This document shows, piece by piece, positions 4,055 to 60,417 of a DNA stretch of 64,000 nucleotides. Positions within the stretch are counted from its first letter, which is position 1; each line of letters begins with the position of its first letter. The DNA is taken from contig CAZBAJ010000001.1 of the NCBI GenBank assembly GCA_964490125.1, positions 67,573-131,572 of the forward strand. Reading direction: 5' to 3'. Both the position numbers and the translations under genes were made by a program. The notes below the pieces were generated by a model. The model saw only the letters and a program-made list of their open reading frames with translations, was not told where the DNA came from and made no database searches. The stretch is from an uncultured Candidatus Saccharibacteria bacterium. GTDB lineage: Bacteria; Patescibacteriota; WWE3; UBA101185; UBA10185.

Positions 4055-4549
4055 CTAGTACGCTTTTGGTTTAAAACCTTCTGAATTTAGCACTCTAAAG
4101 TTTACGCCGTCCTGCGTCAACACAGAAAGCCCGTATTTCTCCGCTTCCTTCATGCTGTCTTTTGGCACTGCCATACCTGCTACACCGCCATAGACATGAA
4201 AATTTGAAAAACCTGGTACAGTTTGTTTAAAAAGGGGCAGTTTTTGTGTGGCAAAATCCTCTACATCTTTAGGATGAAGCTTGTGTTTAACTTCTAAAAC
4301 CGCTACCGAATTACCGTTTTTCAGCACAATATCCCATTCAAGGTCGTTAAACCCGCCAAAATTTTTGGCTACATCGTCATATTTAATTCCGTTTAATACT
4401 TTTTTATGCTTAAGCGCGGAGTAAAAATACTCTTCAGCCACATCACCCAAATTGTTTCCTATTCCACCCATTCTTTGCATAGCTTTTTCTACATAGGCGT
4501 CAAGTTCCGCTAATGCACGACTCCGTTTGGTTGACGAGGGTTTTTTCAT
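4055..4549 (-). CDS. Hypothetical PD-(D/E)XK-like protein, paralog 2
   Basis: EWDIVLKNGNSVAVLEVKHK motif; paralog of 1572..2111; TTGACA-N17-TATTAA on minus strand ends 6 nt before ATG, no SD (leaderless?). Confidence 0.55.
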   Translation of the reverse strand: MKKPSSTKRSRALAELDAYVEKAMQRMGGIGNNLGDVAEEYFYSALKHKKVLNGIKYDDVAKNFGGFNDLEWDIVLKNGNSVAVLEVKHKLHPKDVEDFATQKLPLFKQTVPGFSNFHVYGGVAGMAVPKDSMKEAEKYGLSVLTQDGVNFRVLNSEGFKPKAY

Positions 4550-4624
4550 AAGGATTTAATATCAAAAATCACTTCTAGTGTCAATACGACAATTTATGTC
4601 TATGGGATGTAGATAAGGGTTTGG

Positions 4625-4710
4625 GACTCCAGAGAGAGAGAGTTAAATGTGCATCACCGTCCGTGGACGATGTTGTCGTTTTAACCTCCTCTCCCTGGAG
4701 TCTTTTTTTT
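4625..4710 (+). terminator. Conserved structured hairpin (about 23-bp imperfect stem; arms GACTCCAGAGAGAGAGAGTTAAA / TTTAACCTCCTCTCCCTGGAGTC) followed by T8; copy b of a repeated element
   Basis: Inverted repeat read directly; on the minus-strand RNA the A-C mismatches become G-U wobbles (stronger fold); T8 on plus strand overlaps the stop codon of the convergent small ORF. Confidence 0.6.
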
Positions 4711-4983: not shown

Positions 4984-5254
4984 CTTACAGTCGCAAAGAT
5001 CCGGCAAACACCGGGGAGCATGGGGAAGAAAGTCCTGTTGAAGGAAGGACGCTGGAAAGTGTCGCCTAAATCCGTCAACCAAGATAAGTAGAACCCCACG
5101 GGAAAGCCCGTTACAGATTAAATCCAGTCGGCAAGAAACCGGAGGGATGCAAAGGTTTGGGTGGAAACACTCAAGCAAAATGAGGTGGCAACGCGGTAAA
5201 ACGCCCTCATGAGATTGTCAAATTAATTTTGGCGGTTTTGTGAGGGCATTTTTT
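4984..5254 (+). promoter_or_regulatory. T-box riboswitch leader (Asp/Asn) with intrinsic terminator
   Basis: Promoter TTGACT(4949)-N17-TATGTT; T-box-like AAATGAGGTGGCAACGCGG (UGGC would pair with a G73 tRNA: Asp/Asn); terminator GCCCTCAT...GTGAGGGC + T6 at 5203-5254; directly upstream of class IIb aaRS gene. Confidence 0.6.
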
Positions 5255-5296
5255 GTCGTCATACCGCAAGTGGCAATAAACCACAAGAAAGGAACC

Positions 5297-6586
5297 ATGG
5301 AGCGTACCTACATTAAAGACCTAAAAGAAAAGCTTGGGCAGGAAGTTAAAATCGACGGGTTTGTGCAAGTGCGACGGGATCAGGGCGGGATTAAATTTAT
5401 AGTTTTGCGCGATGTTACGGGAACTGTGCAATGCATTGTAATGAAGCAGTCGGGGGAGGTGTTTGACCAGGTTGGCGGGCTGTCGTTGGAATCGGTAGTA
5501 GAAATTGGCGGACTTGTTAAAGAGCAAAAGCAGGCGCCCGGCGGATTTGAAGTGGAAATAAAGTCGCTTAAAGTTTTGTCTGTTGCAGAGCCTTTGCCCA
5601 TTCCGGTAATGGAAGAAAAAGGCGGTAATGAGGTTGACGCGACTTTGCGGTTTGACTATAGGTGGATTGATCTGCGCAAGCCGGAAAAGCTTAAAATTTT
5701 TAAGGTCTGGACGGCGCTGGAGAAAGGTTTTAGAAAGTATTTTGCAGACAACGGGTTTATTCAGGTTTATTCTCCGTCAATAATGGGTACTGCTAGCGAA
5801 GGTGGCGCGGAGGTCTTTGAGATTAAATATTACGACAAAAAAGCCTATTTATCCCAGTCGCCACAATTCTACAAGCAGTTAGCCCAAGCCGCGGGTTTTG
5901 AGAAAGTGTTTTTGATGGTTCCGTATTATCGGGCGGAGCTTTCCTTTACAACCCGTCACATGACTGATTTTACCGGTTGGGATTTTGAGATGTCGTTTAT
6001 AGAGTCGCACGAGGATATTGCAAAAGCAGAAGAAGGGATGTTGGTTGAGGGTTTCAAAGCGGTTAAGGCAGAAGTCTTGTCGGACTTAGAGGTTCCTACT
6101 TTACCGTTTCCAAGGTTGACTATGAAGGAAGCTAAAGAGCGACTTAAAAAGGTTGGAATACCTAGCGAGAAGGACGGAGACTTTTCTTCTGAAGAAGAGC
6201 GGGAAATTGGTCGACTTATGAAGGAAGAAACCGGACATGATTTTGTATTTGTTACGGAATATGGCGCACCGTACCGGGCTTTTTACCACATGCGACCAGA
6301 AAATGATCAGAGTGTAACCAAAAGCTACGATCTTATGTACAAAGGTTTAGAGATTACAACGGGTGCCCAAAGAGAACATCGTCCGGAAATTCTAAAGAAG
6401 CAGGCAATAGAAAAAGGCGTGCCGACCGAGCCCTTAGAGGGCTATTTTAGCTACTTTAAGTACGGTTGTCCGCCTCATGGCGGCGCAGGCATAGGTCCCG
6501 GCAGAATTGTCATGAAGATTTTGGATTTGGAAAGCGTAAAAGACGCCACCTTTTTGCCAAGGGATGTAAAGCGTCTGACGCCTTAG
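5297..6586 (+). CDS. aspS: Aspartyl- or asparaginyl-tRNA synthetase (class IIb, archaeal/eukaryal-type, about 430 aa)
   Basis: N-terminal OB-fold then class II catalytic core (GAPYRAFYHMRP... GGAGIGPGR motif 3); start taken as MERTYIK at 5297 (SD AAAGGAA) because ATG 5240 lies inside the T-box terminator. Confidence 0.8.
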   Translation: MERTYIKDLKEKLGQEVKIDGFVQVRRDQGGIKFIVLRDVTGTVQCIVMKQSGEVFDQVGGLSLESVVEIGGLVKEQKQAPGGFEVEIKSLKVLSVAEPLPIPVMEEKGGNEVDATLRFDYRWIDLRKPEKLKIFKVWTALEKGFRKYFADNGFIQVYSPSIMGTASEGGAEVFEIKYYDKKAYLSQSPQFYKQLAQAAGFEKVFLMVPYYRAELSFTTRHMTDFTGWDFEMSFIESHEDIAKAEEGMLVEGFKAVKAEVLSDLEVPTLPFPRLTMKEAKERLKKVGIPSEKDGDFSSEEEREIGRLMKEETGHDFVFVTEYGAPYRAFYHMRPENDQSVTKSYDLMYKGLEITTGAQREHRPEILKKQAIEKGVPTEPLEGYFSYFKYGCPPHGGAGIGPGRIVMKILDLESVKDATFLPRDVKRLTP

Positions 6587-6607
6587 GTTTAAGGCCGTTG
6601 CGACAAT

Positions 6608-6631
6608 AAATTCTATTCAGATTAGAGACAA
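6608..6631 (+). promoter_or_regulatory. Conserved 24-nt motif AAATTCTATTCAGATTAGAGACAA, copy 1, immediately upstream of TTGTCA -35-like hexamer
   Basis: Near-identical copies at 10987..11010 and 53438..53461, each just after or overlapping a stop codon and 1-6 nt upstream of a -35-like hexamer. Confidence 0.5.
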
Positions 6632-6682
6632 CTATCTTGTCAAGTGTATTTTTTAGTGTAATCTTCCCCGCAGGTGGACCAT

Positions 6683-6755
6683 GGGCCGTCCGATCCGGGA
6701 TCAAGCTTGATCTTCAATCTTGCATAGACGGGTTCGACTCCCGTACGGTCCACCA
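6683..6755 (+). ncRNA. tRNA-like element (7-bp acceptor GGGCCGT/ACGGTCC, T-arm ACGGG-TTCGACT-CCCGT, discriminator A, CCA) without a canonical D/anticodon region
   Basis: T-loop TTCGACT and encoded CCA read directly; region between acceptor and T-arm (38 nt, contains palindrome GATCAAGCTTGATC) does not fold as anticodon arm; promoter-like TTGTCA-N16-TAATCT upstream. Confidence 0.35.
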
Positions 6756-6849
6756 AAAATTTAATTTGACTTTTTAATTGGTTTAGTGTAAGTTATTAAC
6801 AGAAGATCAAGCTTGTATCCGACGAAAGTCTCTTGCAAGATGCACAGAA

Positions 6850-6871
6850 GCTCGCGAAAGCGGGCTTTTTT
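6850..6871 (+). terminator. Intrinsic terminator/attenuator hairpin GCTCGC-GAAA-GCGGGC + T6 in leader of carboxypeptidase gene
   Basis: Stem-loop and U-tract read directly, 35 nt upstream of ATG 6906. Confidence 0.6.
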
Positions 6872-6905
6872 GTTTGTGTCTAGATGCTACAATAATCCCT
6901 AGCGT

Positions 6906-7970
6906 ATGGATATCGGTATCGTTAGGAACACATTAATAGTTGTTCTGCTTTTGGGTGCAAAAACCCTAGCTTTCTTGGAATCCAAAGTGTTTGACATTTT
7001 GGTAAAAATTGCACTGGCTCTGGCGATTGGTTACGCGCTGGCGTTAAATAGATTATCAATCGAACACCTGTACACGAGGGCACAGGGTGATGTAAAAACA
7101 TACATTTGGTACAAAACCCTGCCAGCCGACTATTTTGCCAAGCTAGACCAAGAGTCCCAGGCCGTTTTTGCCAGGTATCAAGAGGCCATCAAGCCTAAAC
7201 CACCAACTAGAATCGCAGAAACTCCGTTCCCATCAATTACTGCCAAGTCGCACATTATAATAGATGTCACAACAAACACCGTTTTAAGTTCCAAGGATAC
7301 CAATTTGCCTCTGCCTCCTGCCTCAACCGCTAAGCTAGCAACCGCTTTAGCGTCGCTCAAAATTTACAAGCTGAATGAAGAAATCACCGTTCCTCAGTTT
7401 TGTACGCAGGTTGACGGCACAAAAGCCGAGTTTCTCCAAGGTCAAAAATTTCTGGTGGGTGACTTATTAAAAGCCCTGTTGGTTTATTCCTCTGGTGACG
7501 CTGGTTGTGTGCTATCCATTGGCAAAACTTCTTACGCGGATTTTATTAGACTTATGAACGAGGTCGCCAAAGAGGCGGGCATGCAAAACACAAAATTTAC
7601 TAATCCTATTGGTTTGGACGACGCGGACGGTCAAAATTTAGCTTCCGCGGAGGATTTAGCAAAGCTGGGCATGTTTGCGGTTAAAAACGACTTTATAAAA
7701 GAAGTTGTACGACTTAAAGACCTTGAGCTTAAAGATTTGGACGGAGAATATGTTAAGCGACTTGCAAACACCAATAAATTGTTGACGGAAATTCCGGAAA
7801 GTGTAGGCATAAAAACCGGTACGACCACAGGGGCCGGGGAGGTTTTAATTTATGAATACGCCAAGGACAAGACGAATTTAATAATCGTCGTAATGGGTTC
7901 AGCTGATCGCTTTAAGGATGTAAAAGATTCATTGGCTTGGGCTCTAAATTCCTACGAATGGGATAAATAG
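6906..7970 (+). CDS. dacA: Serine-type D-Ala-D-Ala carboxypeptidase (PBP5/6 family, S11)
   Basis: SXXK (ASTAKL), SXN-like (SSGDAG), KTG (KTGTT) motifs; N-terminal TM. Confidence 0.75.
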   Translation: MDIGIVRNTLIVVLLLGAKTLAFLESKVFDILVKIALALAIGYALALNRLSIEHLYTRAQGDVKTYIWYKTLPADYFAKLDQESQAVFARYQEAIKPKPPTRIAETPFPSITAKSHIIIDVTTNTVLSSKDTNLPLPPASTAKLATALASLKIYKLNEEITVPQFCTQVDGTKAEFLQGQKFLVGDLLKALLVYSSGDAGCVLSIGKTSYADFIRLMNEVAKEAGMQNTKFTNPIGLDDADGQNLASAEDLAKLGMFAVKNDFIKEVVRLKDLELKDLDGEYVKRLANTNKLLTEIPESVGIKTGTTTGAGEVLIYEYAKDKTNLIIVVMGSADRFKDVKDSLAWALNSYEWDK

Positions 7971-9517: not shown

Positions 9518-10999
9518 ATGACCGAAGATACAAAGTTGGTAAAAACTAGGATGGCACCCAGTCCGACCGGAGAGTTTCATATTGGTGGCATGCGTACACT
9601 GCTTTATAACTACGCTTTTGCCAAGAAAAATCACGGTAAATTTCTTTTAAGGATAGAAGACACAGATCGGGAAAGGTTTGTGGAAGGAGCAATAGAAAGG
9701 GCTTACCAGGTGATAAAAGATTACGGTTTGAGTTGGGATGAAGGTCCGTTAGTAGGAGGTCCAAACGAGCCTTATGTTCAGTCACAGAGACTGGACTTGT
9801 ACAAAAAACACGCTTTAGAACTTGTGGAAAAAGGTCACGCTTATTACTGCTTTTGTACAAAGGAGCGACTTGATGAGATGCGTAAGAAGCAACAGCATGA
9901 GCATTTAAGCGTTACAAAGTACGATCGCCATTGTTTGAGTTTGACCTCGGAACAAGTTGCTGAAAATCTAAAAACGGGTGTATCTTATGTTATACGGATG
10001 AAAGTGCCTTCAGACAGGGCGGTTTCTTATGACGATGTGTTTTTGGGGAAAATTGAGGTACCGTCCAACGACATTGAAGATCAGGTATTGTTAAAATCGG
10101 ATGGATTTCCCACCTACCACCTTGCCGTAGTTGTTGACGATCATTTAATGGGCGTTACCCACATTTTGCGCGGTAGAGAGTGGCTTCCATCTACGCCCAA
10201 ACATGTTTTGTTGTATGAGTTTTTTGGTTGGGATATGCCTATAACAGGTCACTTTCCGGTTTTAAAAGAAGTCGGTTCAACTAAAAAAATGTCTAAACGC
10301 TTTGGGGATGTTGCGGCTACGGACTTTCTAAAAAACGGCTACTTGCCCGAGGCGCTTTTAAACTTCATCATGCTTTTGGGCTGGAACCCCGGCACAGAGC
10401 AAGAAGTATTTTCTTTGGAGGAATTTATTAAGGTTTTTTCGCTTGAACGAATTCATAAAACAGATTTAGTGGCTTTTGATAGGGAAAAGTTATTATGGTT
10501 TAACGGTTACTACATCCGCCAACTATCCGATAGCGATCTTTACGAAAAAATATCTGCGTGGGCAAAAAAGTGGGATACAGATTTGAATTTGGAATTAAAG
10601 GATCGGGAGTTTTCCACTAGAATTTTGGCGCTAATAAAGGACAGAATGAAATTACTTAGCGACTTTAAGGAGCTGTCGACCTACTTTTTTGTAGATCCCG
10701 TGGTTGACACCAAAGCATTCTCTAATCATTCTGGAGAAAAATGGCAAGCTATTTTGCAGGGTTTTGAAAAAGCTTTCTCAGAACTTGAAGAAGGCCGTTG
10801 GAATAAGGAAAATCTAGATAAAATATCGCACCAGGTTTTGGAAGAGCAAGGATTTTCACCAAAAGAGGCGTTTATGACCTTGCGTCTTGCCGTTACAGGA
10901 CAAACTGCTACACCGCCACTTTTTGATGTGCTTGAACTTTTGGGAAAAAGAGAGGTGGGGCGCCGTCTTAAAGTCGTCCTACCAACAAATTCTAATTAG
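9518..10999 (+). CDS. gltX: Glutamyl-tRNA synthetase
   Basis: HIGH-class motif PTGEFHIGG and KMSKR; 493 aa. Confidence 0.9.
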   Translation: MTEDTKLVKTRMAPSPTGEFHIGGMRTLLYNYAFAKKNHGKFLLRIEDTDRERFVEGAIERAYQVIKDYGLSWDEGPLVGGPNEPYVQSQRLDLYKKHALELVEKGHAYYCFCTKERLDEMRKKQQHEHLSVTKYDRHCLSLTSEQVAENLKTGVSYVIRMKVPSDRAVSYDDVFLGKIEVPSNDIEDQVLLKSDGFPTYHLAVVVDDHLMGVTHILRGREWLPSTPKHVLLYEFFGWDMPITGHFPVLKEVGSTKKMSKRFGDVAATDFLKNGYLPEALLNFIMLLGWNPGTEQEVFSLEEFIKVFSLERIHKTDLVAFDREKLLWFNGYYIRQLSDSDLYEKISAWAKKWDTDLNLELKDREFSTRILALIKDRMKLLSDFKELSTYFFVDPVVDTKAFSNHSGEKWQAILQGFEKAFSELEEGRWNKENLDKISHQVLEEQGFSPKEAFMTLRLAVTGQTATPPLFDVLELLGKREVGRRLKVVLPTNSN

Positions 11000-11010
11000 A
11001 TTAGAGACAA
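10987..11010 (+). promoter_or_regulatory. 24-nt motif copy 2 (AAATTCTAATTAGATTAGAGACAA) overlapping gltX stop, upstream of recA promoter TTGACA-N17-TACATT
   Basis: Sequence identity to copies 1 and 3. Confidence 0.5.
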
Positions 11011-12235: not shown

Positions 12236-12466
12236 ATGTTAATGAAGAATAAGCTAACTGGCAGAAGACCAGGTCATATTTATGTAGGCGGTAGATGGCT
12301 TAAGATCGGCTCTGATACAGGTATAGAGACTACTATTCCTGATTACGATGCCCAGTACCTTAAGCGTCTGTTTCGCGAAATTCGAGAAACTAAGCCTTTT
12401 CCACAGCCCCAGGAAGTAGAGTATGAAGGTGCTTGCTCCAGATGTGGGAGAAAAACCTATTATTAA
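12236..12466 (+). CDS. Putative antitoxin partner of PIN protein (uncharacterised 76 aa)
   Basis: Small ORF immediately upstream of and overlapping PIN-domain gene by 44 nt; no recognised DNA-binding motif. Confidence 0.3.
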   Translation: MLMKNKLTGRRPGHIYVGGRWLKIGSDTGIETTIPDYDAQYLKRLFREIRETKPFPQPQEVEYEGACSRCGRKTYY

Positions 12467-12956
12467 GACAGTACTTGACACAAACATTTTGCAATATTTG
12501 CAGAAATCGGTGTTTTCTACGGATTTGGCTGACTTTATTACTAGATTTAGAGAAAGGGATTCTAAACCTAAGATATCGGATATTAGTCTTTGCGAGTTGC
12601 TTTCGGGCTGTAATCACAATCAGGAAGTGGCTTCTTTAAAGATCTTAAATCAGTTTGAAAGGTATTCAATAGATGAGGATATACTGACGGTTGCTGCGAA
12701 ATTACAGAACATCTATCGACTGTTGGGCGTGGAACCAGATCAAGTCAGCTTAGCTGATAGGATAATTGCCGCAACCTCTATAGTAATGGGTGCGGATATC
12801 CTAACCGCAAATGTCAATGACTTTCCGCGTCCGGTATTTAAAGAGAAACACGAGGAGCTGTTTTTATACAGAAAAGGATACAAAACTTGCTTGCAGGTCG
12901 TTCAAATATTGTCGCCAAACTGGGAGTTGGTAGAAAGTTACTTAACAGATGCATGA
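12423..12956 (+). CDS. vapC: PIN-domain ribonuclease (VapC-like toxin)
   Basis: N-terminal VLDTNIL motif and C-terminal ADRIIAATSIVMGADILTANVNDF typical of PIN/VapC. Confidence 0.65.
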   Translation: MKVLAPDVGEKPIIKTVLDTNILQYLQKSVFSTDLADFITRFRERDSKPKISDISLCELLSGCNHNQEVASLKILNQFERYSIDEDILTVAAKLQNIYRLLGVEPDQVSLADRIIAATSIVMGADILTANVNDFPRPVFKEKHEELFLYRKGYKTCLQVVQILSPNWELVESYLTDA

Positions 12957-23568: not shown

Positions 23569-24465
23569 TTAAGCAGATTTATTGATTATGTATTTCCTTA
23601 AGAATCTGGCTGGACGGTAGCTTAACTTGCTTTGCCTAAGTCCCTGCAATCCTGTATCTTGTTGTAGATTTATGTATTTAGCCCCGCGTTGTCGTAAAAT
23701 ATTATCTGACTCGTGTTCTAGAAACAGTGAAGAGTCTTCGTACGCAACATCAGCTTTTCCTAAATGTCCCATAGACCATCCGTTTGGCAGTAGTTGACTG
23801 AATGAAAAACCGACAAACTTGTCTTTTATGAAAAGCCCGGTGTTTACACAGTCAAAATGATAAGACGCTTTGATGTACTCCTCTACCGAGTCCAGGTCTT
23901 CTGATGTTTTCGATCTGTCAAAACCTTTATTTTTTGACCACACTTCTGTTAAAGTAAAAACCAGTTTTTGAGTGCCAGGAACGTCAAGATCCAGTAATTG
24001 TACTTTACATCCTGGATTTTTTTTGACAAAGTTGTTTAGCCTTTTTCTCAGTGGTTTATATTTACCCCCCTGCATATTAGCAAAGTCGTTAAGATTGATA
24101 ACATAGTCAAAACCGTCCCTATCTTCTGCAAATTCTACATCGTTACTTAGTCCTGCCAGTGTTATTTCGGGTACCATTTTTAGTTCCTCTGGGCAAGCTA
24201 ACAACTTACTAAACAAGTCCTCTCCCACAGTCGTTCCTAAAAACGAGTGGATCATGACATCTTTTAAATAGTCGACAATTTTAATAACCAGTACATTTTG
24301 GCTTATCGCGTACATGTTTAGGCGTTTGCTGTTCCAGTAGACAAGGCTCATGGGGTTAAAGTCGCTGTAAGGTTCGTAATGCGACACAAAGTCGGCTATT
24401 GTTTGCAACTCACCATGTGTTACTTTTTTAAAGTTTAGGTTATCCATTATAGATATTGACACCAA
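23569..24465 (-). CDS. Hypothetical protein, possibly DUF2156/LPG-synthase-C-like (aminoacyl-tRNA-dependent transferase fold)
   Basis: About 300 aa, pattern SDFNPMSLVYW near N-terminus reminiscent of MprF C-terminal domain family; weak recollection only. Confidence 0.25.
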   Translation of the reverse strand: MVSISIMDNLNFKKVTHGELQTIADFVSHYEPYSDFNPMSLVYWNSKRLNMYAISQNVLVIKIVDYLKDVMIHSFLGTTVGEDLFSKLLACPEELKMVPEITLAGLSNDVEFAEDRDGFDYVINLNDFANMQGGKYKPLRKRLNNFVKKNPGCKVQLLDLDVPGTQKLVFTLTEVWSKNKGFDRSKTSEDLDSVEEYIKASYHFDCVNTGLFIKDKFVGFSFSQLLPNGWSMGHLGKADVAYEDSSLFLEHESDNILRQRGAKYINLQQDTGLQGLRQSKLSYRPARFLRKYIINKSA

Positions 24466-35485: not shown

Positions 35486-37552
35486 TTGATTTATAACGGG
35501 TGTATAGATATGCAAGTACAACAATTACCGATTTACCAATTCTTAGAAGGTACTGGGAAGAGCTTTATAATACCTGTATATCAAAGAGATTATGCTTGGA
35601 CTAGGATTAATTGCCAAAGATTGTGGGATGACCTAGTAGATTTGAAAAACAACGCGAGAGCAGACCACTTTTTAGGTACCCTTGTCACCATCGGAAGCGG
35701 TTTCCAAGAGTACACGGTTATTGATGGTCAGCAGAGATTAACAACAACATCAATTTTACTAATTGCCTTACACACATTTATAAAAAACAAACTGGAAAAA
35801 AATGATGAAGAAAAAATATTATCCGAACAGGTTTTGGACTTTTTGATTAACAAGTATTCACCGGAACAAGATAAAAGAATAAGACTAAAGCCTAATAAAC
35901 AGGATAAGGAGCATTTTGAAAAGCTTTTTACAAACGGAAATGCCGAAAATGTTAATTCAAATATAGTGAGTAACTACAACTTTTTTTATGAAAAAATAAA
36001 GTCTGAAATATTATCCCCAAAAGAAGTATTCGACGCATTTAGAAAATTAAAAATCGTACTTATCGATTTGGTTAGAGGACAAGATGATCCGCAGTTAATT
36101 TTTGAGAGTTTAAACTCAACGGGGGTCGATCTTACTGCAGGAGATCTGATTCGTAATTACATCTTAATGGATTTACAACCCATCGAACAAGAAGGAATGT
36201 ATAAGAATTACTGGCTTAATATCGAAAGGTTAACAGGAAACATTGCAGAGTTCGTCAGAAATTACTTGATTTTTAAAACTAAGACATCGGTAAAAAAGGA
36301 TGATGTTTATACAGTATTTAAAAAATTCTCCTTGGATAATTTTCACAGGGATAAGGAATCCATTTTAAAGGATCTACTATATTACGCTGAAATGTATGGT
36401 TGGTTAGTACAGATAAACAACCATCCCAATAGTGTAGTAAATAATCAATTAAACAGACTTAACAAGCTTGAGTTCACGGTATCGCATCCGTACCTACTGG
36501 ATGTTTTCAGCGATTTAAAGGATGGTATTTTAACCGAACAGGCGGTTAAGGACATTTTAATAACTATTGAAAGCTATGCGTTCAGAAAAATGCTTGTAGA
36601 CAACACCACGCAAGGTTTAAACAAGATGTTTATCACACTTTCTAAGGACATAAAAAAAGAAGCATCTTGGAAAGAAATATATTTAGACATTTTGAATTTT
36701 ATACTTCTAGAAAAAAGAGTTTCCCAAAGATTCCCCAGTGATGATGAATTTGAAGCCGCGTTGATAACAAAAGAGGTTTATAGGCTACAAGCAAAGAACA
36801 GAAACTTTTTGCTAGAATCTTTAGAAAACTATAGTTCTGCTTATCCTGTAAATGTTGACGAATTGACAGTCGAACATATAATGCCCCAAACACTTACAAA
36901 AGAATGGAAAAGTAAATTGGGGGATAATTGGCAAGAATTACATAAAAAATATCTACATACTCTAGGCAATTTAAGTTTAACTGCAAAAAATACAGAGTTA
37001 TCCAATAATACTTTTGAAAATAAACAACAGATTGACTATCAAACCAGCAGATTGAAGTTAAATTTTAAACTGGAAGGTCTTACTGATTGGAATGAGGAGA
37101 AAATAATCGAGAGAGCAAAAGATTTAATAAAAAACGCCATAGATATTTGGCCGTTTCCTAAAACAACATACATCAAACCAATCCCCGAAGAGCAGGTTTT
37201 TGATTTAACCAGCGAAGATAGCTTTAGTGGAAGCAAGCCGTCTTTCCTTTATTTTGAAAACGATGATAGAGGGACTGAATTAAAAACATGGAGAGACTTG
37301 CTTACAAAAGGTTGCAGATTCTTGCATGATTTTTCGCCAACCCAGTTCTTGGAAATGCAGAACAGTCATGAATTTAAATGGTATTTCGACAACCAGAAGC
37401 CGTTAAGGCATCCTTTGGAGTTTATGCCAAATAAGTTTGTTGAAGGAAGTATTAGTGCTAATGGCGTTATCGCTTTTCTTTCAAAAATCTGTGAGAGGTT
37501 AAATTACCCTGCAGAAAACATATCATTTTCTATCAAAAATATAAAAGAATAA
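35486..37552 (+). CDS. DUF262 (ParB/Srx-like NTPase, DGQQR) + DUF1524 (His-Me finger, HIMPQ) protein: GmrSD/SspE/BrxU-like nuclease
   Basis: IDGQQRLTT motif N-terminal, TVEHIMPQT C-terminal; alternative start MQVQQL at 35510. Confidence 0.75.
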   Translation: MIYNGCIDMQVQQLPIYQFLEGTGKSFIIPVYQRDYAWTRINCQRLWDDLVDLKNNARADHFLGTLVTIGSGFQEYTVIDGQQRLTTTSILLIALHTFIKNKLEKNDEEKILSEQVLDFLINKYSPEQDKRIRLKPNKQDKEHFEKLFTNGNAENVNSNIVSNYNFFYEKIKSEILSPKEVFDAFRKLKIVLIDLVRGQDDPQLIFESLNSTGVDLTAGDLIRNYILMDLQPIEQEGMYKNYWLNIERLTGNIAEFVRNYLIFKTKTSVKKDDVYTVFKKFSLDNFHRDKESILKDLLYYAEMYGWLVQINNHPNSVVNNQLNRLNKLEFTVSHPYLLDVFSDLKDGILTEQAVKDILITIESYAFRKMLVDNTTQGLNKMFITLSKDIKKEASWKEIYLDILNFILLEKRVSQRFPSDDEFEAALITKEVYRLQAKNRNFLLESLENYSSAYPVNVDELTVEHIMPQTLTKEWKSKLGDNWQELHKKYLHTLGNLSLTAKNTELSNNTFENKQQIDYQTSRLKLNFKLEGLTDWNEEKIIERAKDLIKNAIDIWPFPKTTYIKPIPEEQVFDLTSEDSFSGSKPSFLYFENDDRGTELKTWRDLLTKGCRFLHDFSPTQFLEMQNSHEFKWYFDNQKPLRHPLEFMPNKFVEGSISANGVIAFLSKICERLNYPAENISFSIKNIKE

Positions 37553-48954: not shown

Positions 48955-49401
48955 CTATTTTTGCACAACATTCTTATCAATTTGCCTTTGGAACTCCTCA
49001 AAATCTCCAAGGTTTATCTGGATGTACTCGTATACTTTGTTTAGATCTATGTCTAAGTAGCTGTGGACGGTTATGTTCCTGAAACCCGTGGCTTGGGTTA
49101 ATTTCTCCGACAAATTCTTGTCGATTATTTTCCTGTCGGCTAGAATTTTAAATACCTCTTTAAGTTCTTTAGGTCGTTCAAAGCCGTCGGAAGCTATTAT
49201 AAGCTTAGCGATATCTAGGCACGCCTCTATAATAACTTGAAGTTGTCGGATGGCAAAATCATATTCGTATGGATTTTCACAGAATTCGGTTTCGTCAGTT
49301 CCAATATAACCGTTTAGTAGAAGAAGGCGTCTGTCTATCTCCTCCATTCTTTGTTTTATAGCCTGTTTATCTACCATTTTTACTTTGTAGTCTTTCCACA
49401 A
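48955..49401 (-). CDS. hepT: HEPN-domain toxin (HepT/DUF86-like)
   Basis: R-x4-H motif in GFRNITVHSY; overlaps upstream MNT gene by 35 nt. Confidence 0.7.
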   Translation of the reverse strand: MWKDYKVKMVDKQAIKQRMEEIDRRLLLLNGYIGTDETEFCENPYEYDFAIRQLQVIIEACLDIAKLIIASDGFERPKELKEVFKILADRKIIDKNLSEKLTQATGFRNITVHSYLDIDLNKVYEYIQINLGDFEEFQRQIDKNVVQK

Positions 49402-49792
49402 TTTTATTATAGCGCATATCGTACAGGGGTTTTATGTCTGTATAGTCGTCTAACGCGCGGTTTTCAAAGTTCGCCTTGTTTTTAGCATCGGCTGTGTAGA
49501 TTGACTTACCAAAAAGTACGGATGTGTAATAAAGCGGGTACGACATAATTTGCCGAGGTATAGCTTCTATTGTTTTATCTTTTGCAAGAGCTGTAAGTTC
49601 TTCCTGAAGTTTGAACATGTAATTATAAAGATCACCGGGAAGTCTTTCGTCGTCTAGTACAACGCAAATATCCACATCGCTTGCTGGTGTGGCGCTTCCG
49701 TTGACCTGAGATCCGTACAGGTAAGCGTGAAGAATCTCTGGGTGATTTCTAAAACCCTCTATTAAATTTTGTAAGGTTGCTTGGATGTCCAT
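49367..49792 (-). CDS. mntA: Minimal nucleotidyltransferase antitoxin (MntA-like)
   Basis: YLYGSQVNGSATPASDVDI (GS-x-DVD motif). Confidence 0.7.
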   Translation of the reverse strand: MDIQATLQNLIEGFRNHPEILHAYLYGSQVNGSATPASDVDICVVLDDERLPGDLYNYMFKLQEELTALAKDKTIEAIPRQIMSYPLYYTSVLFGKSIYTADAKNKANFENRALDDYTDIKPLYDMRYNKIVERLQSKNGR

Positions 49793-51750: not shown

Positions 51751-53439
51751 ATGCACAACCGCTTTACTCTGGTTAAACTTGGGATTATCGTATTGTCGTT
51801 TATTGCGGCATCCCGACTTTTTAGCATTCAAATCTTGTCGCACAAACTATACATAGCCCGCGCCTACGATCAATACGCCAACTTTATAACAATTCCTGCT
51901 AAACGCGGGGAAATTTTAACCTCCGACGGTTATCCTTTGGCGTCAAATCAAGTGTCGTACTTACTTTACGCCGAACCTAAAAAACTTAAAGACAAGCAAA
52001 AACTAATTGACGCGGTGCTGTCTATTTTACCAAAGGAAATTAGTGCAAAGGAAGATGAGCGACTTAAAGAGTTGCTTGACTACAATTTGGCATGGGTGGC
52101 TTTGGAACATAACTTGTCCCCAACTCAAAAAACAACCTTGGAGCAACTAAAGCTAGAAGGAATTGGGTTTGAAGAAGAATCCGTGCGGTTTTATCCGGAA
52201 GGCTCTTTAGCGGCGCATGTTTTGGGTTATGTGGCGGAGCAGGAGGACGGTACACAAGGCGGTTACTATGGTATTGAGGCGGCTTTTAATGGCGACTTAC
52301 AGGGTCGACCAGGCAAAGTAACGGAGGAAAAAGATGCACTAGGTCTTTCTATTTTGACGGGCGGATTTACAAAAGTTCCACCGGTGGACGGCAAGCCAAT
52401 TAGGTTAACCATAGACCGCACTGTGCAGTACATTATAGAAAAAAAGCTTAAGGAGGGTGTAGAAAAGTACGATGCTGGAGACGGCGTGATTATTGTAATG
52501 AATCCCATGGACGGCAGTATTTTGGGCATGGCGACTTATCCGGCATATGATCCTCAAAACATGGATTTTACCGAGCCCGCTGTTTCTGCCGAGTCCGGTA
52601 GAAAGGCGCGTGAGCATAGAAATCTGGCAATTTCGTATTTATATGAGCCGGGTTCCGTAATAAAGCCGTTAACTGTTTCCTCCGCCATAGATTTAGGTTT
52701 AGCGACGCCGGAAACTGCTTATTTCGACCCGGGTTCTGCAGTGTATTCAAATTATACTATTAGAAATTGGGATGGAAAAGCTTTAGGACCCATGAATTTA
52801 ACCACTCTGCTCCAAAAGTCTAACAACATTGGTGCGGCATGGGTAGGACATTTGGTTGGTGCAGACGCACTTTCTACTTATTTTAGAAAATATGGTCTTG
52901 GCGCCCTTTCCGGGGTGGCACTGGAGGGTGAGGAGGCAAGTTTACTTAGGGATTACAAGGAAACTACTGACATTGATCTTGCTACTATGTCCTTTGGACA
53001 GGGAATTTTAGCAACGCCTTTACAGGTGTTAAACGCGTTTAATGCTATTGCAAATGGTGGTATTTTGTATCGCCCAAAAATTGTAGCGGACACGGAGCCA
53101 AAAGAGCTTGGTAGAGTAATAAAAAAAGAGACTTCCAATACTATGATAGATATGCTAATAAAAGCGGTGGACGGTGGGGAGTCAAAATACTTTAATATTA
53201 AAAACTATGTAGTGGCGGGCAAAACGGGTACTGCGCAAATTGCAGTTGCCGGTGGTTACGATCCGCATAAAACTAACGCCACATTTGTGGGCTTTTTGCC
53301 CGCCACCAAAAGATTTTCTATGATAGTTAAGTTGCGAGAACCCCAAACAAGTATTTACGCGGCAGAGACTGCCGTCCCTCTTTGGATGGAGACGGCCGGC
53401 GAGCTGGCAAAGTACTATTCTATCCCGTCAGATAAATAA
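51751..53439 (+). CDS. ftsI: Peptidoglycan D,D-transpeptidase FtsI (class B PBP)
   Basis: SVIKP (SXXK), SNN (SXN), KTGT motifs; N-terminal TM. Confidence 0.85.
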   Translation: MHNRFTLVKLGIIVLSFIAASRLFSIQILSHKLYIARAYDQYANFITIPAKRGEILTSDGYPLASNQVSYLLYAEPKKLKDKQKLIDAVLSILPKEISAKEDERLKELLDYNLAWVALEHNLSPTQKTTLEQLKLEGIGFEEESVRFYPEGSLAAHVLGYVAEQEDGTQGGYYGIEAAFNGDLQGRPGKVTEEKDALGLSILTGGFTKVPPVDGKPIRLTIDRTVQYIIEKKLKEGVEKYDAGDGVIIVMNPMDGSILGMATYPAYDPQNMDFTEPAVSAESGRKAREHRNLAISYLYEPGSVIKPLTVSSAIDLGLATPETAYFDPGSAVYSNYTIRNWDGKALGPMNLTTLLQKSNNIGAAWVGHLVGADALSTYFRKYGLGALSGVALEGEEASLLRDYKETTDIDLATMSFGQGILATPLQVLNAFNAIANGGILYRPKIVADTEPKELGRVIKKETSNTMIDMLIKAVDGGESKYFNIKNYVVAGKTGTAQIAVAGGYDPHKTNATFVGFLPATKRFSMIVKLREPQTSIYAAETAVPLWMETAGELAKYYSIPSDK

Positions 53440-53461
53440 ATTCTATTCAGATTAGAGACAA
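53438..53461 (+). promoter_or_regulatory. 24-nt motif copy 3 (AAATTCTATTCAGATTAGAGACAA) directly after ftsI stop, upstream of TTGCAA hexamer
   Basis: Identity to copy 1. Confidence 0.5.
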
Positions 53462-53584
53462 GTGTATTGCAATGTTATTACTTTTGGTAATAATGGTGTC
53501 AGTCATAATTTTGCTAGGCAAGCCGGTAAGTTTGCATCTTAAGTGAGTGGGTACGGTTGCTACTATGCCGGCTTGTTATATATG

Positions 53585-57773: not shown

Positions 57774-60395
57774 TTGGGTCGCTTTGATTACTTTATGAGT
57801 AATATTTTTGAACATCTACAAGAAGACGCAATAAAATGGCGAGAAGATGGATACAAAACTGACCAGTATTCTGCGGTTGGTGAAATATTGTCGTGGAATA
57901 GAGACGAGACAGGTCAGTTGCGGTATCTGCGGGAGGCACAATTGAATGCCTTAGAGGTTTACTGGTTTGTACGACTTGTTTTAAAGACGCCAAAACTGCT
58001 TGATTTGTACAACAGATATTATCCTAGAAGTAGCGATTTAGCCAATGCCTTGGGTGTACCTAGAACAAACATAGTTACAAATATGCTAATTGATCACGAA
58101 GATCTATTTGAGAAAATAAAAACAGATGTTGAGTTTGCAAAATCCATGCAGTTGGACTCTTTGCACGAATCCTTAAACCTACCATACTCAAGCTACATCC
58201 TGGCTTTGGCTATGGGCGCAGGAAAAACAGTACTCATAGGTGCCGTTATAGCAACAGAATTTTGCTTAAGCATCGAATATCCTGAAGCAAATTTTATGAA
58301 AAACTCCTTAGTTTTTGCTCCCGGCACCACAATCATTGAGTCTTTAAGGGAAATTTCTGGCATGCCCTTTGACAAAATATTACCACCAAGATTTTATAAG
58401 TCTTTTACAGCCAATATAAAAATGGTCTATACCCGAAACGGTGAAAAAACGATCCCTGTACAGGATTCAAGTACCTACAACATTATTGTAACCAACACAG
58501 AAAAAATAGCATTAAGAAAAATCGCTAAACGGAAAGAGCAGTCCCAATTAGAATTTGAGGAGTTAGAGAAGCAAGAAAAGTTGCTAGCAAATGCTAGGCT
58601 CAATAAGATCTCAAGCCTACCGAATTTGGGTGTATTTTCCGATGAAGCCCACCACACTTATGGAAACAAATTGGGCGACGAATTAAAGCGTGTAAGAAGT
58701 ACCATAAACCACCTACACGCTGAAACTGATCTTGTGTGTGTAGTTAATACCACAGGGACACCTTACTATAAAAAACAACCGATAAAAGATGTAGTTTTTT
58801 GGTATTCGTTAAAGCAGGGTATACAGGATAACATTTTAAAGAGCCTACACAACGGTATTTTAACCTACGATATTAAGGACGAAAAACCCGAGGAAATTAT
58901 CGATGATATTGTCAAGGACTTTTTAGAAAAGTACGATAAAACCGCTTTAAGCAACGGTGCCAAAGCTAAAATCGCATTTTATTTTGCTAATCAGGAGCAT
59001 TTGGACTTATCCAAGCCGTACATTGAAAAATCTTTAGCTAAATACGGACAGAATCCCACGATTATTCTAGTCAATACCCAAAAATCTTCACAGAAAGAAA
59101 TAGATGAATTCAACCGACTTAACGACCCCGATAATCAGAAACGAGTAATCCTGCTTGTTGGGAAAGGTACCGAGGGCTGGAATTGCCCCTCTTTATTTGC
59201 TACCGCCCTAGTTAGGGAGTTTACAAGTTCAAATAACTTTATTTTACAGGCATCCACTAGGTGTTTACGACAAATACCGGAGAATAAACAGCCAGCAACT
59301 GTCTACATAGAATCAAAAAATCAGGCAATTCTTAATAAAGAGTTAAAGGAGACATTTGCTATGAGTTTGTCGGATCTTAACAGAGTGGATCAAAAGATGG
59401 AAACCCAAGTTTTAGAATTTAAAAAGACGGTTTACCCTTCCCTAGAGATTACGCGGACGATAAAAAAGGTTATGCAAGGAACTAACAAACAAAGTCAGAT
59501 CAAACTTTCTAAACCAAAGGGCGTTTACCAAAATTTGGTTGTTAAGTCCATTTTTGAGCCAAAACTAGAAAGTACGGGAACTGTTCTTTCACCAACAGGT
59601 GAGGATGTTCAGGTAATTTTTTCTACTGAAACATACGATATCTATACAGCTGTACAGATGATTACTGATAATTATCACCAGAATTGTCTGCCCATCCTTG
59701 GGGAATTAAGAAAATTGTATCCAAGTGGCCAGTTACCTAGAAACCACCTTAGAGAGCTTTTTGACCAAGTAGAAAGACAATGTCAGAATTACATCACGAT
59801 AGAGGAGAAGATAACCGAGGCCTTGGCTCTGATAAAATTTCAGGATGAGGATCAAAAGCCCGTCTTTTATAAAAACGATAAAGGTGTTTATTGCCACACG
59901 ATCCGATATAAAAAGGGTACTTTTGGAGACAATAATGAGCTTTTAGTCCATCAAAAAGATTATGCTGGAATAAATATCCGAGAGCTTGGTTTTCACTATA
60001 CGCCTTACAATTTTGACTCCGAACCAGAAAAAAGTTTTTACGATTACATGCTTAATAAACTACAAACAAAGGCGGAAGATGTAGATGATATATATTTTAC
60101 AGGGGGTTTAACTAATACAAAGCAAACGGATATGTATTTTCAATACAAAGGAACGGATGATAGATATCACAACTACTTTCCTGACTTTGTCGTGGTCAAA
60201 AAGGACGGAACATTTTTAATAATTGAGATTAAGGCGGAGGGTAAAGAAAACGACCTAGAGGTACAGACAAAAATAAAAGCGGTAAGAAAGTTAGAAAATT
60301 TGCCAGAGAATCGGTTTAAATACGAGATAATTTATACCGACAATCCCGTGCCTGTAAGAAAATTTGAGGGTGCAGAAGCATGGTTAAAAAGTTAA
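57774..60395 (+). CDS. res: Type III restriction enzyme Res subunit (SF2 helicase + C-terminal PD-ExK nuclease)
   Basis: Walker A AMGAGKT, DEAHH box (FSDEAHHTYG), C-terminal PDFVVV...IIEIK. Confidence 0.75.
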   Translation: MGRFDYFMSNIFEHLQEDAIKWREDGYKTDQYSAVGEILSWNRDETGQLRYLREAQLNALEVYWFVRLVLKTPKLLDLYNRYYPRSSDLANALGVPRTNIVTNMLIDHEDLFEKIKTDVEFAKSMQLDSLHESLNLPYSSYILALAMGAGKTVLIGAVIATEFCLSIEYPEANFMKNSLVFAPGTTIIESLREISGMPFDKILPPRFYKSFTANIKMVYTRNGEKTIPVQDSSTYNIIVTNTEKIALRKIAKRKEQSQLEFEELEKQEKLLANARLNKISSLPNLGVFSDEAHHTYGNKLGDELKRVRSTINHLHAETDLVCVVNTTGTPYYKKQPIKDVVFWYSLKQGIQDNILKSLHNGILTYDIKDEKPEEIIDDIVKDFLEKYDKTALSNGAKAKIAFYFANQEHLDLSKPYIEKSLAKYGQNPTIILVNTQKSSQKEIDEFNRLNDPDNQKRVILLVGKGTEGWNCPSLFATALVREFTSSNNFILQASTRCLRQIPENKQPATVYIESKNQAILNKELKETFAMSLSDLNRVDQKMETQVLEFKKTVYPSLEITRTIKKVMQGTNKQSQIKLSKPKGVYQNLVVKSIFEPKLESTGTVLSPTGEDVQVIFSTETYDIYTAVQMITDNYHQNCLPILGELRKLYPSGQLPRNHLRELFDQVERQCQNYITIEEKITEALALIKFQDEDQKPVFYKNDKGVYCHTIRYKKGTFGDNNELLVHQKDYAGINIRELGFHYTPYNFDSEPEKSFYDYMLNKLQTKAEDVDDIYFTGGLTNTKQTDMYFQYKGTDDRYHNYFPDFVVVKKDGTFLIIEIKAEGKENDLEVQTKIKAVRKLENLPENRFKYEIIYTDNPVPVRKFEGAEAWLKS

Positions 60396-60417
60396 TTTAA
60401 GTTTATAATCTGCAAAT

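Follow-up and report, generated by a model that had tools for sequence, protein, structure and literature searches.

A putative accessory RNA-gene cassette with an alanine-type tRNA mimic between the AspRS and dac genes of a Patescibacteria bacterium

A tRNA Mimic Encoded between AspRS and dac

The window analysed here is a 64,000-nt stretch of DNA from an uncultured Patescibacteria bacterium (contig CAZBAJ010000001.1 of assembly GCA_964490125.1). Our reading of its sequence is that an accessory RNA-gene cassette is inserted between the gene of class II aspartyl-tRNA synthetase (AspRS, 5240-6586) upstream and that of the Peptidase_S11 D-Ala-D-Ala carboxypeptidase (dac, 6906-7970, ATG at 6906) downstream. 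The 73-nt RNA encoded by this cassette, RNA1 (6683-6755, forward strand), would be an alanine-type tRNA mimic that is equivalent to the tRNA-like domain of transfer-messenger RNA (tmRNA) without its message, does not decode and does not regulate dac. We give this reading a probability of about 0.5.

RNA1 is composed of an acceptor helix, a central arm, a T-arm, the discriminator A73 and an encoded CCA end. The acceptor helix (GGGCCGT, 6683-6689, with ACGGTCC, 6745-6751) contains six Watson–Crick pairs and G3:U70, the T-arm (ACGGG, TTCGACT and CCCGT, 6728-6744) is canonical, and A73 at 6752 is followed by CCA at 6753-6755. The acceptor helix, the T-arm, the discriminator and CCA had been pointed out in an earlier note, made by a model from the letters of the window, and each sequence feature listed there was located in the window sequence. 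For the chance test, we used a pattern in which a 5-bp stem with a TTCRANY loop is followed by 7 nt, N and CCA, and in which a 7-mer located 20-69 nt upstream shows full complementarity. The pattern occurs once in the window and was found twice in 300 dinucleotide shuffles; the tRNA-end motif of RNA1 is well above chance. G3:U70, A73 and CCA form the alanine identity set common to tRNA-Ala and tmRNA (PMC3590771). Judging from these positions, RNA1 is probably chargeable with alanine.

The acceptor and the T-arm of RNA1 are separated by 38 nt, which contain the palindrome GATCAAGCTTGATC (6699-6712). In the minimum-energy fold, a single irregular hairpin (GGGAUCA-AGCU-UGAUCUU) is favoured in this place and makes up the central arm (6692-6719). 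The acceptor/T-arm end of RNA1 is tRNA-shaped, and the remainder is degenerate. A 13-nt 5' leader is predicted at 6670-6682; it is conserved in the second lineage described below (L002) as well as the mature RNA. The alternative 8-bp helix mentioned in the earlier note is also present, formed by GGTGGACC of the leader (6673-6680) with GGTCCACC (6747-6754). Moreover, the leader heptamer GGACCAT (6676-6682) is a near-duplicate of the adjoining acceptor 5' strand GGGCCGT (the two together cover 6676-6689), which results in two alternative registers for pairing with ACGGTCC. The upstream register, having A3:U70 instead of G3:U70, was chosen by ARAGORN under relaxed settings.

The cassette sequence is identical in contigs of two other samples (L205 and L206), which makes three independent samples altogether, and its left end is also present in a third further sample (L201). 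Samples containing this strain are SRR8925812, SRR11845629 and SRR12133404. An assembly artefact is excluded by the identical copies. The sequence supports the view that RNA1 is the product of a genuine gene for a structured, tRNA-related RNA whose CCA is encoded.

Empty Sites and the dac Promoter

For the comparative analysis, AspRS neighbourhoods were taken from 62 genomes and from further contigs obtained via protein look-ups. The best AspRS matches in the genome collections were metagenome-assembled genomes of Patescibacteria only. The cassette is missing in eight relatives (L077, L207, L203, L202, L001, L080, L081 and L208), where 21-58 nt separate the AspRS stop from the dac start. When positions 6608-6865 were deleted in silico, the spacer of the window could be aligned over its full length with that of L208 (58 nt). 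The presence/absence cassette defined in this way measures 258 bp and is a complete transcription unit on the forward strand. It carries, in this order, an upstream motif, promoter-like boxes (P1), RNA1, a second promoter-like site (P2), a short RNA pairing with the central arm of RNA1 and a terminator stem.

The cassette is flanked by 11-bp direct repeats, the left one being TGCGACAATAA (6599-6609, forward strand) and its partner at 6885-6895 matching in 10 of 11 positions. The cassette-free relatives possess one copy of this repeat, which is the -10 region of dac. The extended -10 box of dac, TGCTACAAT (6885-6893, forward strand), is conserved as TGTTA(C/A)AAT (TGTTAMAAT) in all relatives. 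It lies directly before dac in those without the cassette and downstream of the terminator in the window. The terminator itself was found as the earlier note had described it, with a GAAA tetraloop and ahead of dac: it is an intrinsic terminator (6846-6871, forward strand) with a 10-pair stem, the hairpin occupying 6846-6869 and the T run extending to 6871, 34 nt before the dac ATG. Its stem is within the cassette, while the T run is partly flanking sequence that L208 also has. Since the -10 box of dac comes after the terminator, the hairpin marks the end of the RNA gene and is not an attenuator of dac; at most, it insulates dac from upstream transcription.

The earlier note had placed the structure in the leader of dac, together with an attenuator, and had considered a tRNA-mimic riboregulator of this cell-wall gene, which would act in the manner of a T-box. 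The terminator 34 nt before dac and the long-range complementarity between the mimic and a downstream stretch agree with such a proposal, and T-box leaders likewise combine a tRNA-shaped RNA, a complementary stretch and a terminator upstream of a gene. In the cassette, however, the tRNA-shaped part is encoded within the element itself, and past the terminator a separate promoter serves the downstream gene. Moreover, no specifier loop, T-box sequence or antiterminator alternative was found in the element, Rfam gave no T-box match to it, and no cis-regulatory Rfam family rose above noise. The empty sites of the eight relatives, which have dac without the cassette, and the conserved -10 box past the terminator leave the leader/attenuator reading unsupported: what had been taken for a dac leader is an optional cassette. 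The comparative data thus largely refute the riboregulator, which we regard as improbable, and it is unlikely that the cassette is a control element of dac. In this respect, the analysis corrects the tempting interpretation of the element as a riboswitch for a cell-wall gene.

With regard to mobility, the flanking 11-bp direct repeats (10/11) and the patchy presence were found, but neither terminal inverted repeats nor a recombinase. A miniature inverted-repeat transposable element was rejected, as terminal inverted repeats are absent. The wider search for copies included one metagenome scan, one genome-collection scan, viral-contig scans and phage/plasmid BLAST. No other copies of the cassette were found in the window, in the metagenome scan or in the viral scans. 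The 5' pattern returned only the L002 type and random GC-rich matches from the metagenome, the 5' and RNA2 patterns gave no matches in the viral contigs, and phage/plasmid BLAST yielded T-arm or terminator fragments only. Insertions and deletions, some as large as a gene and others smaller, recur in the spacer between AspRS and dac; in L078 and L079 (85% AspRS identity), a nucleoside 2-deoxyribosyltransferase gene is located there (4295-4699).

A Diverged Copy in a Second Lineage

A lineage with 82% AspRS amino-acid identity (L002, L072, L074 and L204) has a diverged copy of the cassette at the same site. In the comparison of L002 with the window, the upstream motif matched in 22 of 23 positions, CTTGTC was identical, TGTAATCTTC matched in 10 of 10 and the leader together with the 5' half of RNA1 in 30 of 31. 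Meanwhile, divergence was seen in the promoter spacer and immediately ahead of the leader. Such a mosaic pattern of sequence conservation indicates that both the RNA and the promoter boxes have been under purifying selection. The P1 boxes (forward strand), TTGTCA at 6637-6642 and TGTAAT at 6657-6662, are both conserved in L002 in spite of the diverged spacer between them, and they make the own promoter proposed in the earlier note plausible.

An IS3-family element lies at about 5432-6433 of L002 (the same is seen in L072 and L204). It has imperfect terminal repeats and two transposase frames (HTH and rve), the second of which is broken. An unrelated HD-domain gene is found beyond it, indicating that a rearrangement accompanied the insertion. 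The suggestion that L002 continues like the window from 6816 onward (GATCA...GTATCC) was rejected, as GTATCC belongs to the inverted repeat of the IS3-family element. A small open reading frame (ORF) at 6681-6710, MGRPIRDQA, was also discarded: the sole L002 substitution in it changes the amino acid, and in L002 the frame continues into the insertion sequence.

Comparison of RNA1 with tRNA, tmRNA and Other RNA Classes

The checks suggested in the earlier note, namely ARAGORN including its tmRNA mode and Rfam, revealed no canonical tRNA or tmRNA at default or gathering scores, and both assignments were rejected. RNA1 has several parts of a canonical tRNA (a 7-bp acceptor, a 5-bp T-stem, a TTCRANY T-loop, a discriminator and CCA), but not the cloverleaf in which a D-arm accompanies an anticodon arm with a 7-nt loop, U33 and purine 37. 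With relaxed settings (-ps), ARAGORN drew a poor cloverleaf named 'tRNA-Glu(UUC)', and its mitochondrial mode (-mt) placed a cloverleaf with the anticodon UUC exactly on 6683-6755. The earlier note had ruled out D and anticodon arms in the 38 nt, which was therefore slightly too strong, although the arms are indeed degenerate and poor. A possible alternative based on these cloverleaves is an unusual decoding tRNA, a tRNA-Glu(UUC) with alanine identity that would cause mistranslation. We consider it highly improbable, as C33 replaces the universal U33, the anticodon stem contains two U.U mismatches, the D-stem is 3 bp long, the competing hairpin is more stable and the tRNA is not called at default thresholds. 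A decoding function of RNA1 is very unlikely.

Of the parts of a tmRNA, RNA1 has a tRNA-Ala-like acceptor (G3:U70, A73), the T-arm and CCA. The message of a one-piece tmRNA (resume codon, tag frame and in-RNA stop) was not found in the 38 nt between the acceptor and the T-arm, and pseudoknots and the long helix P2 of tmRNA (distinct from the promoter-like site P2) are not present in RNA1. The absence of a tag-peptide frame had been correctly noted before. The tmRNA D-loop consensus GGnUUCGAC with the GGG of P2a is matched in part, the GG and a 4-5 nt linker being missing. The tmRNA mode of ARAGORN was negative for RNA1 even when relaxed (-ps60). At E <= 10, Rfam listed neither RF00023 (tmRNA) nor mt-tmRNA for RNA1, while the control sequences L183 and L145 do yield sub-threshold RF00023 matches. 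In the permissive Rfam search, tmRNA_permuted (RF04321) reached 13.1 bits against a gathering score of 47, covering the T-arm and CCA only. A permuted two-piece tmRNA was rejected on the grounds that the 5' strand of RNA1 is upstream of the T-arm, which is the standard order, that the score is 13 bits and that ARAGORN does call the true permuted tmRNA of the phage contig L148. Under the definition of the reduced, jakobid-type tmRNA (PMC3590771), RNA1 has the tRNA-like domain and the alanine identity and has no mRNA-like region. These tests show that standard tRNA, tmRNA and Rfam annotation misses genes of this kind. No ssrA, tRNA-Ala or smpB gene was found in the window; for SmpB, there was no motif match in the window and no Pfam match among the ORFs scanned.

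Probable Ancestry of RNA1

The T-arm ACGGG-TTCGACT-CCCGT and the ...UCCACCA end of RNA1 are identical to those of many bacterial tmRNAs (RF00023, RF04321), with which RNA1 also shares the alanine identity elements and a 5' segment, TYCGAYCCGGGAUCA, similar to the D-loop/P2a region. When viral contigs were scanned for the T-arm followed by NNNN and TCCACCA, 119 loci were obtained, of which 76 had an ARAGORN-called tmRNA and a few a tRNA-Ala. The similarity of the 5' segment (G)TYCGATCCGGGATCA to the tmRNA D-loop/P2a consensus TTCGAC-GGGGATCA was above ~97% of shuffles. The L002 variant GUUCGAUCCGGGAUCA especially resembles the consensus UUCGAC-GGGGAUCA; the matching parts are (U)UCGAUCC-GGGAUCA in L002 and UCCGAUCC-GGGAUCA in the window. 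The palindrome GATCAAG|CTTGATC would be the expected remainder if the interior of the tmRNA helix P2 had been excised. Unlike bacterial tmRNA, RNA1 has no pseudoknots, no tag frame and no D-loop GG, and it is ~300 nt shorter.

RNA1 resembles tRNA-Ala and its minihelix in G1-C72, G2-C71, G3:U70, A73, CCA and the length of 73 nt, and its CUUGCAU (6719-6725) is similar to the anticodon loop of tRNA-Ala(UGC). Meanwhile, CUUGCAU has no flanking stem, the D and anticodon arms are degenerate, and ARAGORN made no tRNA-Ala call. From the sequence, RNA1 is most likely a tmRNA derivative that has kept the tRNA-like domain alone, descent from tRNA-Ala being less likely. Among the options of the earlier note, the tmRNA-like tRNA domain accordingly fits best in view of G3:U70, A73, the T-arm, the 5' segment and the lack of a tag frame, whereas the dac riboregulator does not fit.

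The closest described counterpart is the reduced mitochondrial tmRNA of jakobids, which lacks the mRNA-like region and is contiguous and non-permuted in Jakoba libera (PMC3590771; Jacob et al. 2004, cited there). RNA1 shares with it the restriction to a tRNA-like domain, the third-pair G:U, the A discriminator, the T-arm and the lack of a tag frame. It differs in being located in a Patescibacteria chromosome, in an optional cassette, in having an encoded CCA and a truncated D-loop, in lying beside a complementary downstream RNA and in matching neither the mt-tmRNA nor the tmRNA model of Rfam. To our knowledge, tmRNAs consisting of the tRNA-like domain only have so far been described in jakobid mitochondria alone.

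A precedent of another kind is tRNAOther of Bacillus cereus, the loss of which alters the cell wall and antibiotic resistance (PMC3399842). Like RNA1, it is a chromosomal tRNA-like gene in variable DNA that does not work in translation (PMC3399842). The two have no sequence relationship, and tRNAOther retains the cloverleaf. The B. cereus case shows that pseudo-tRNAs can be functional.

Functional Cassette or Decaying Relic

Several observations weigh against a functional tRNA mimic. ARAGORN at default settings found 0 tRNA or tmRNA genes in the whole window, Rfam gave 0 matches at gathering scores, and the best permissive Rfam match was tRNA-Sec with 17.6 bits (E = 0.62, over 6682-6752, gathering score 47). 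RNA1 folded alone has an unexceptional z of -1.9, its tmRNA-type D-loop (GGnUUCGAC) is truncated, and the similarity to the tmRNA 5' region has a p of only ~0.03. A simple sigma-70 scan called neither P1 nor P2. The intact cassette is represented by one sequence type only, and L077, with a 96% identical AspRS, does not have it. The diverged copy of L002 is cut in the T-arm region by the IS3-family element, which abuts it after GGGATCACGGACGG. As the element is absent at 96% AspRS identity and broken by an insertion sequence in the only other lineage, it is dispensable.

The main rival explanation is that the cassette is a decaying relic, i.e., a non-functional remnant of tmRNA or tRNA-Ala, derived from an internally deleted duplicate or left over by a mobile element, the promoter and pairing features of which are fortuitous or residual. 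This is a serious rival, although we hold it to be somewhat unlikely. It would account for the absence of the cassette from eight relatives, among them the nearest one that is not of the same strain, the disrupted copy of the other lineage, the position of RNA1 under all detection thresholds, the degenerate anticodon and D regions and the 11-bp direct repeats around the cassette; the palindrome, too, is what a precise deletion of the interior of tmRNA helix P2 would leave. On the other hand, there is no flaw in the acceptor helix, the T-arm, A73 or CCA, no part of the unit is missing between the upstream motif and the terminator, and the mosaic conservation against L002 is a signature of selection rather than of decay. 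The element has been under constraint, yet it is dispensable. If it is a relic only, its value is modest; it would document the persistence of tmRNA-derived fragments in reduced genomes.

The Downstream RNA and Its Predicted Pairing with RNA1

RNA1 is followed by RNA2, a segment of ~70 nt with an internal hairpin and the terminator, which is either a separate RNA or the 3' trailer of RNA1. Its 5' segment (6802-6820, forward strand) is complementary to 6698-6715 of RNA1 over 18 bp with one bulge (U6816). The second copy of GATCAAGCTTG reported in the earlier note is present, albeit at 6805-6815 and not at 6807, which confirms an 11-mer direct repeat; in addition, 6702-6715 and 6802-6815 form a perfect 14-nt inverted repeat. 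When 6670-6875 was folded, the 18-bp helix with its one bulge (6698-6715 with 6802-6820) dominated the long-range structure (z = -4.5). The flanks of the shared palindrome match in the complementary sense only and not directly, which argues that pairing has been kept and that the repeat is not a simple duplication.

A candidate second pairing of 8 bp involves ATCTTGCA (6717-6724) and TGCAAGAT (6834-6841). Formation of both long-range pairings together was rejected because of the strand polarity; a 13-nt linker would be unable to span 26 bp. Thus, of the double pairing suggested in the earlier note, the 18-bp helix is strong, whereas the second one is sterically hard to combine with it. The internal hairpin of RNA2 (CUUGUA with UGCAAG, 6812-6839, forward strand) encloses a GNRA hairpin, GAC-GAAA-GUC (6821-6830).

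The pairing suggests a further alternative, a new, unpermuted two-piece tmRNA in which RNA1 is the acceptor piece, RNA2 is the message piece and the 18-bp helix joins the two. RNA1 does resemble the tRNA-like domain of tmRNA, the partner RNA pairs with the arm that corresponds to tmRNA helix P2, and a GCA codon at 6842 opens the frame AQKLAKAGFFVCV*. This frame was nevertheless rejected as a tag, since it reads through the terminator and is closed only past the cassette boundary, by a stop (6880-6882) in flanking DNA that L208 has as well. Before the terminator, none of the frames of RNA2 contains a stop codon. Besides, with the given polarity the body of RNA2 would come to lie at the junction, which differs from tmRNA helix P2, the cassette is dispensable, and the tmRNA mode of ARAGORN is negative even when relaxed. 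All this makes a two-piece tmRNA very improbable.

The Upstream Motif and the Promoter-like Sites

The 27-nt motif AATAAATTCTATTCAGATTAGAGACAA (6605-6631, forward strand) is located upstream of P1. An identical copy was found at 53435-53461 and a copy with three mismatches before recA (10984-11010). The motif stands immediately 5' of -35-like boxes at three places, with zero copies expected by chance. The copy at 10984 (three changes) is just upstream of the recA promoter, and the motif also precedes recA in the relative L001 (9070-9093). The consensus of these copies is AA(T/C)AAATTCTA(T/A)T(C/T)AGATTAGAGACAA. Its association with the recA promoter both here and in L001 argues for a host-type, regulated promoter. 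We take the motif for a site associated with host promoters; it may be an operator or an UP element and could link the cassette promoter to recA regulation.

The second promoter-like site, P2 (6766-6794, forward strand), lies in the A/T-rich stretch after the CCA of RNA1 and consists of TTGACT at 6766-6771 followed by TTTAGTGTAA. The same 10-mer TTTAGTGTAA is present in P1 at 6652-6661 and is not enriched elsewhere in the window. Downstream of the second motif copy, ~120 nt of non-coding sequence (53462-53583) precede a UPF0102 (YraN-like) gene; they contain promoter-like boxes and a long stem, GCAAGCCGG...CCGGCTTGT, and have no Rfam match.

Proposed Working of the Cassette

We infer all steps of the following mechanism, in which transcription, processing by RNase P, the CCA end, charging and the inability to decode draw on established knowledge. 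Transcription would start near 6670 from P1, RNase P would cut at G6683 and release the 13-nt leader, and the 3' end of RNA1 would be trimmed back to the encoded CCA. Minihelices with G3:U70 are sufficient substrates for alanyl-tRNA synthetase, and this enzyme could charge RNA1 via G3:U70 and A73. Since RNA1 has no usable anticodon arm, it cannot decode; the charged RNA would act, if at all, as a non-decoding alanyl carrier or a mimic of the tmRNA domain. Speculatively, it might imitate tmRNA, or compete with it, at SmpB and stalled ribosomes, or give its alanine to an aminoacyl-tRNA transferase. The downstream 70 nt, whether an RNA from P2 or a trailer, would pair over 18 bp with the central arm and in this way control the folding, maturation or availability of RNA1. 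The hairpin at 6846-6871 would terminate the unit, and dac would be transcribed from its own downstream -10 box, unregulated by the cassette.

The second of these outlets can be taken further to a dedicated, non-decoding alanine donor for a transferase of the Fem/MprF type (GNAT fold) acting on the cell envelope. Non-proteinogenic tRNAs that serve peptidoglycan bridges offer an analogy. RNA1 has the alanine identity set and an intact minihelix, the cassette adjoins dac, and a penicillin-binding protein transpeptidase is also encoded in the window. The minihelix of tRNA-Ala suffices as a substrate of alanine-dependent enzymes, and for alanyl-phosphatidylglycerol synthase (AlaPGS) minihelix-Ala is as good as the full-length tRNA (PMC6103681). 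The window also encodes a stand-alone LPG_synthase_C protein of 298 aa (23569-24465, reverse strand; MprF C-terminal aminoacyl-tRNA transferase domain, E = 2e-14, no flippase part), a candidate user of alanyl- or lysyl-tRNA outside translation. We nevertheless regard a dedicated donor as unlikely: the transferase gene is 17 kb away, ordinary tRNA-Ala would serve the same enzyme, the cassette is optional and no Fem-family protein was found in the window. The neighbouring 386-aa hypothetical protein was tried as a Fem ligase and rejected, as it has no Pfam or PDB similarity.

Should RNA1 indeed be a tRNA-like domain of tmRNA without a message, it would be a bacterial counterpart of the jakobid RNAs and a tractable system for the solo role of an alanine-charged, anticodon-less tRNA domain. 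It would also make testable the competition with genuine tmRNA or tRNA-Ala and the spread of such a domain by mobile DNA. The cassette brings its own promoter, a built-in complementary partner RNA and strains in which it is naturally present or absent.

Short tmRNA-like Sequences on Viral Contigs

Short tmRNA-like sequences were also seen on viral contigs: in L183 (5693-5737, forward strand, 45 nt), L195 (6371-6443, reverse strand, 73 nt) and L145 (2588-2682, reverse strand, 95 nt), and likewise in L170 and L194. They have, like RNA1, a fully complementary 5' strand, G3:U70, the same T-arm and ACCA, and no message. L195, which adjoins terminase and portal genes, also has the 38-nt spacing and, in addition, a clear tmRNA-type D-loop. 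In contrast to RNA1, the short sequences are viral or proviral and come from other hosts, and the similarity is limited to the T-arm and the acceptor. ARAGORN calls none of them, while the Rfam tmRNA model aligns L183 (27 bits) and L145 (23 bits) end to end (gathering score 47). Their sequences suggest that candidate derivatives reduced to the tmRNA domain may be recurrent.

It is conceivable, although doubtful, that bacteria of the candidate phyla radiation and some phages (L183, L195, L145) carry unrecognised stand-alone, alanine-accepting tmRNA domains without a message ('mini-tmRNAs'). The one described here would have a promoter of the recA type, which may respond to damage, would be restrained by a complementary RNA encoded with it, and would enter stalled ribosomes or feed transferases without tagging. 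On this view, it would be a mobile module modulating ribosome rescue or envelope alanylation.

The phage contig L148 has a permuted two-piece tmRNA (7120-7429), the coding piece of which begins with the same GGGCCGT and the acceptor piece of which ends with 29 nt identical to window 6728-6756. This identity is confined to the T-arm and acceptor, and we judge it compatible with chance among the 119 hits.

Other Genes in the Window

The neighbourhood of the cassette comprises genes for SecD/F, RecJ, class II AspRS, dac, a minus-strand hypothetical protein, glutamyl-tRNA synthetase and RecA. Defence and toxin genes are scattered across the window (35486-37552, 48955-49792, 57774-62172 and 12423-12956). 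The set consists of a GmrSD restriction enzyme, a HepT/nucleotidyltransferase toxin-antitoxin pair, a ResIII helicase beside an N6/N4 DNA methylase and a PIN-domain protein between recA and recX.

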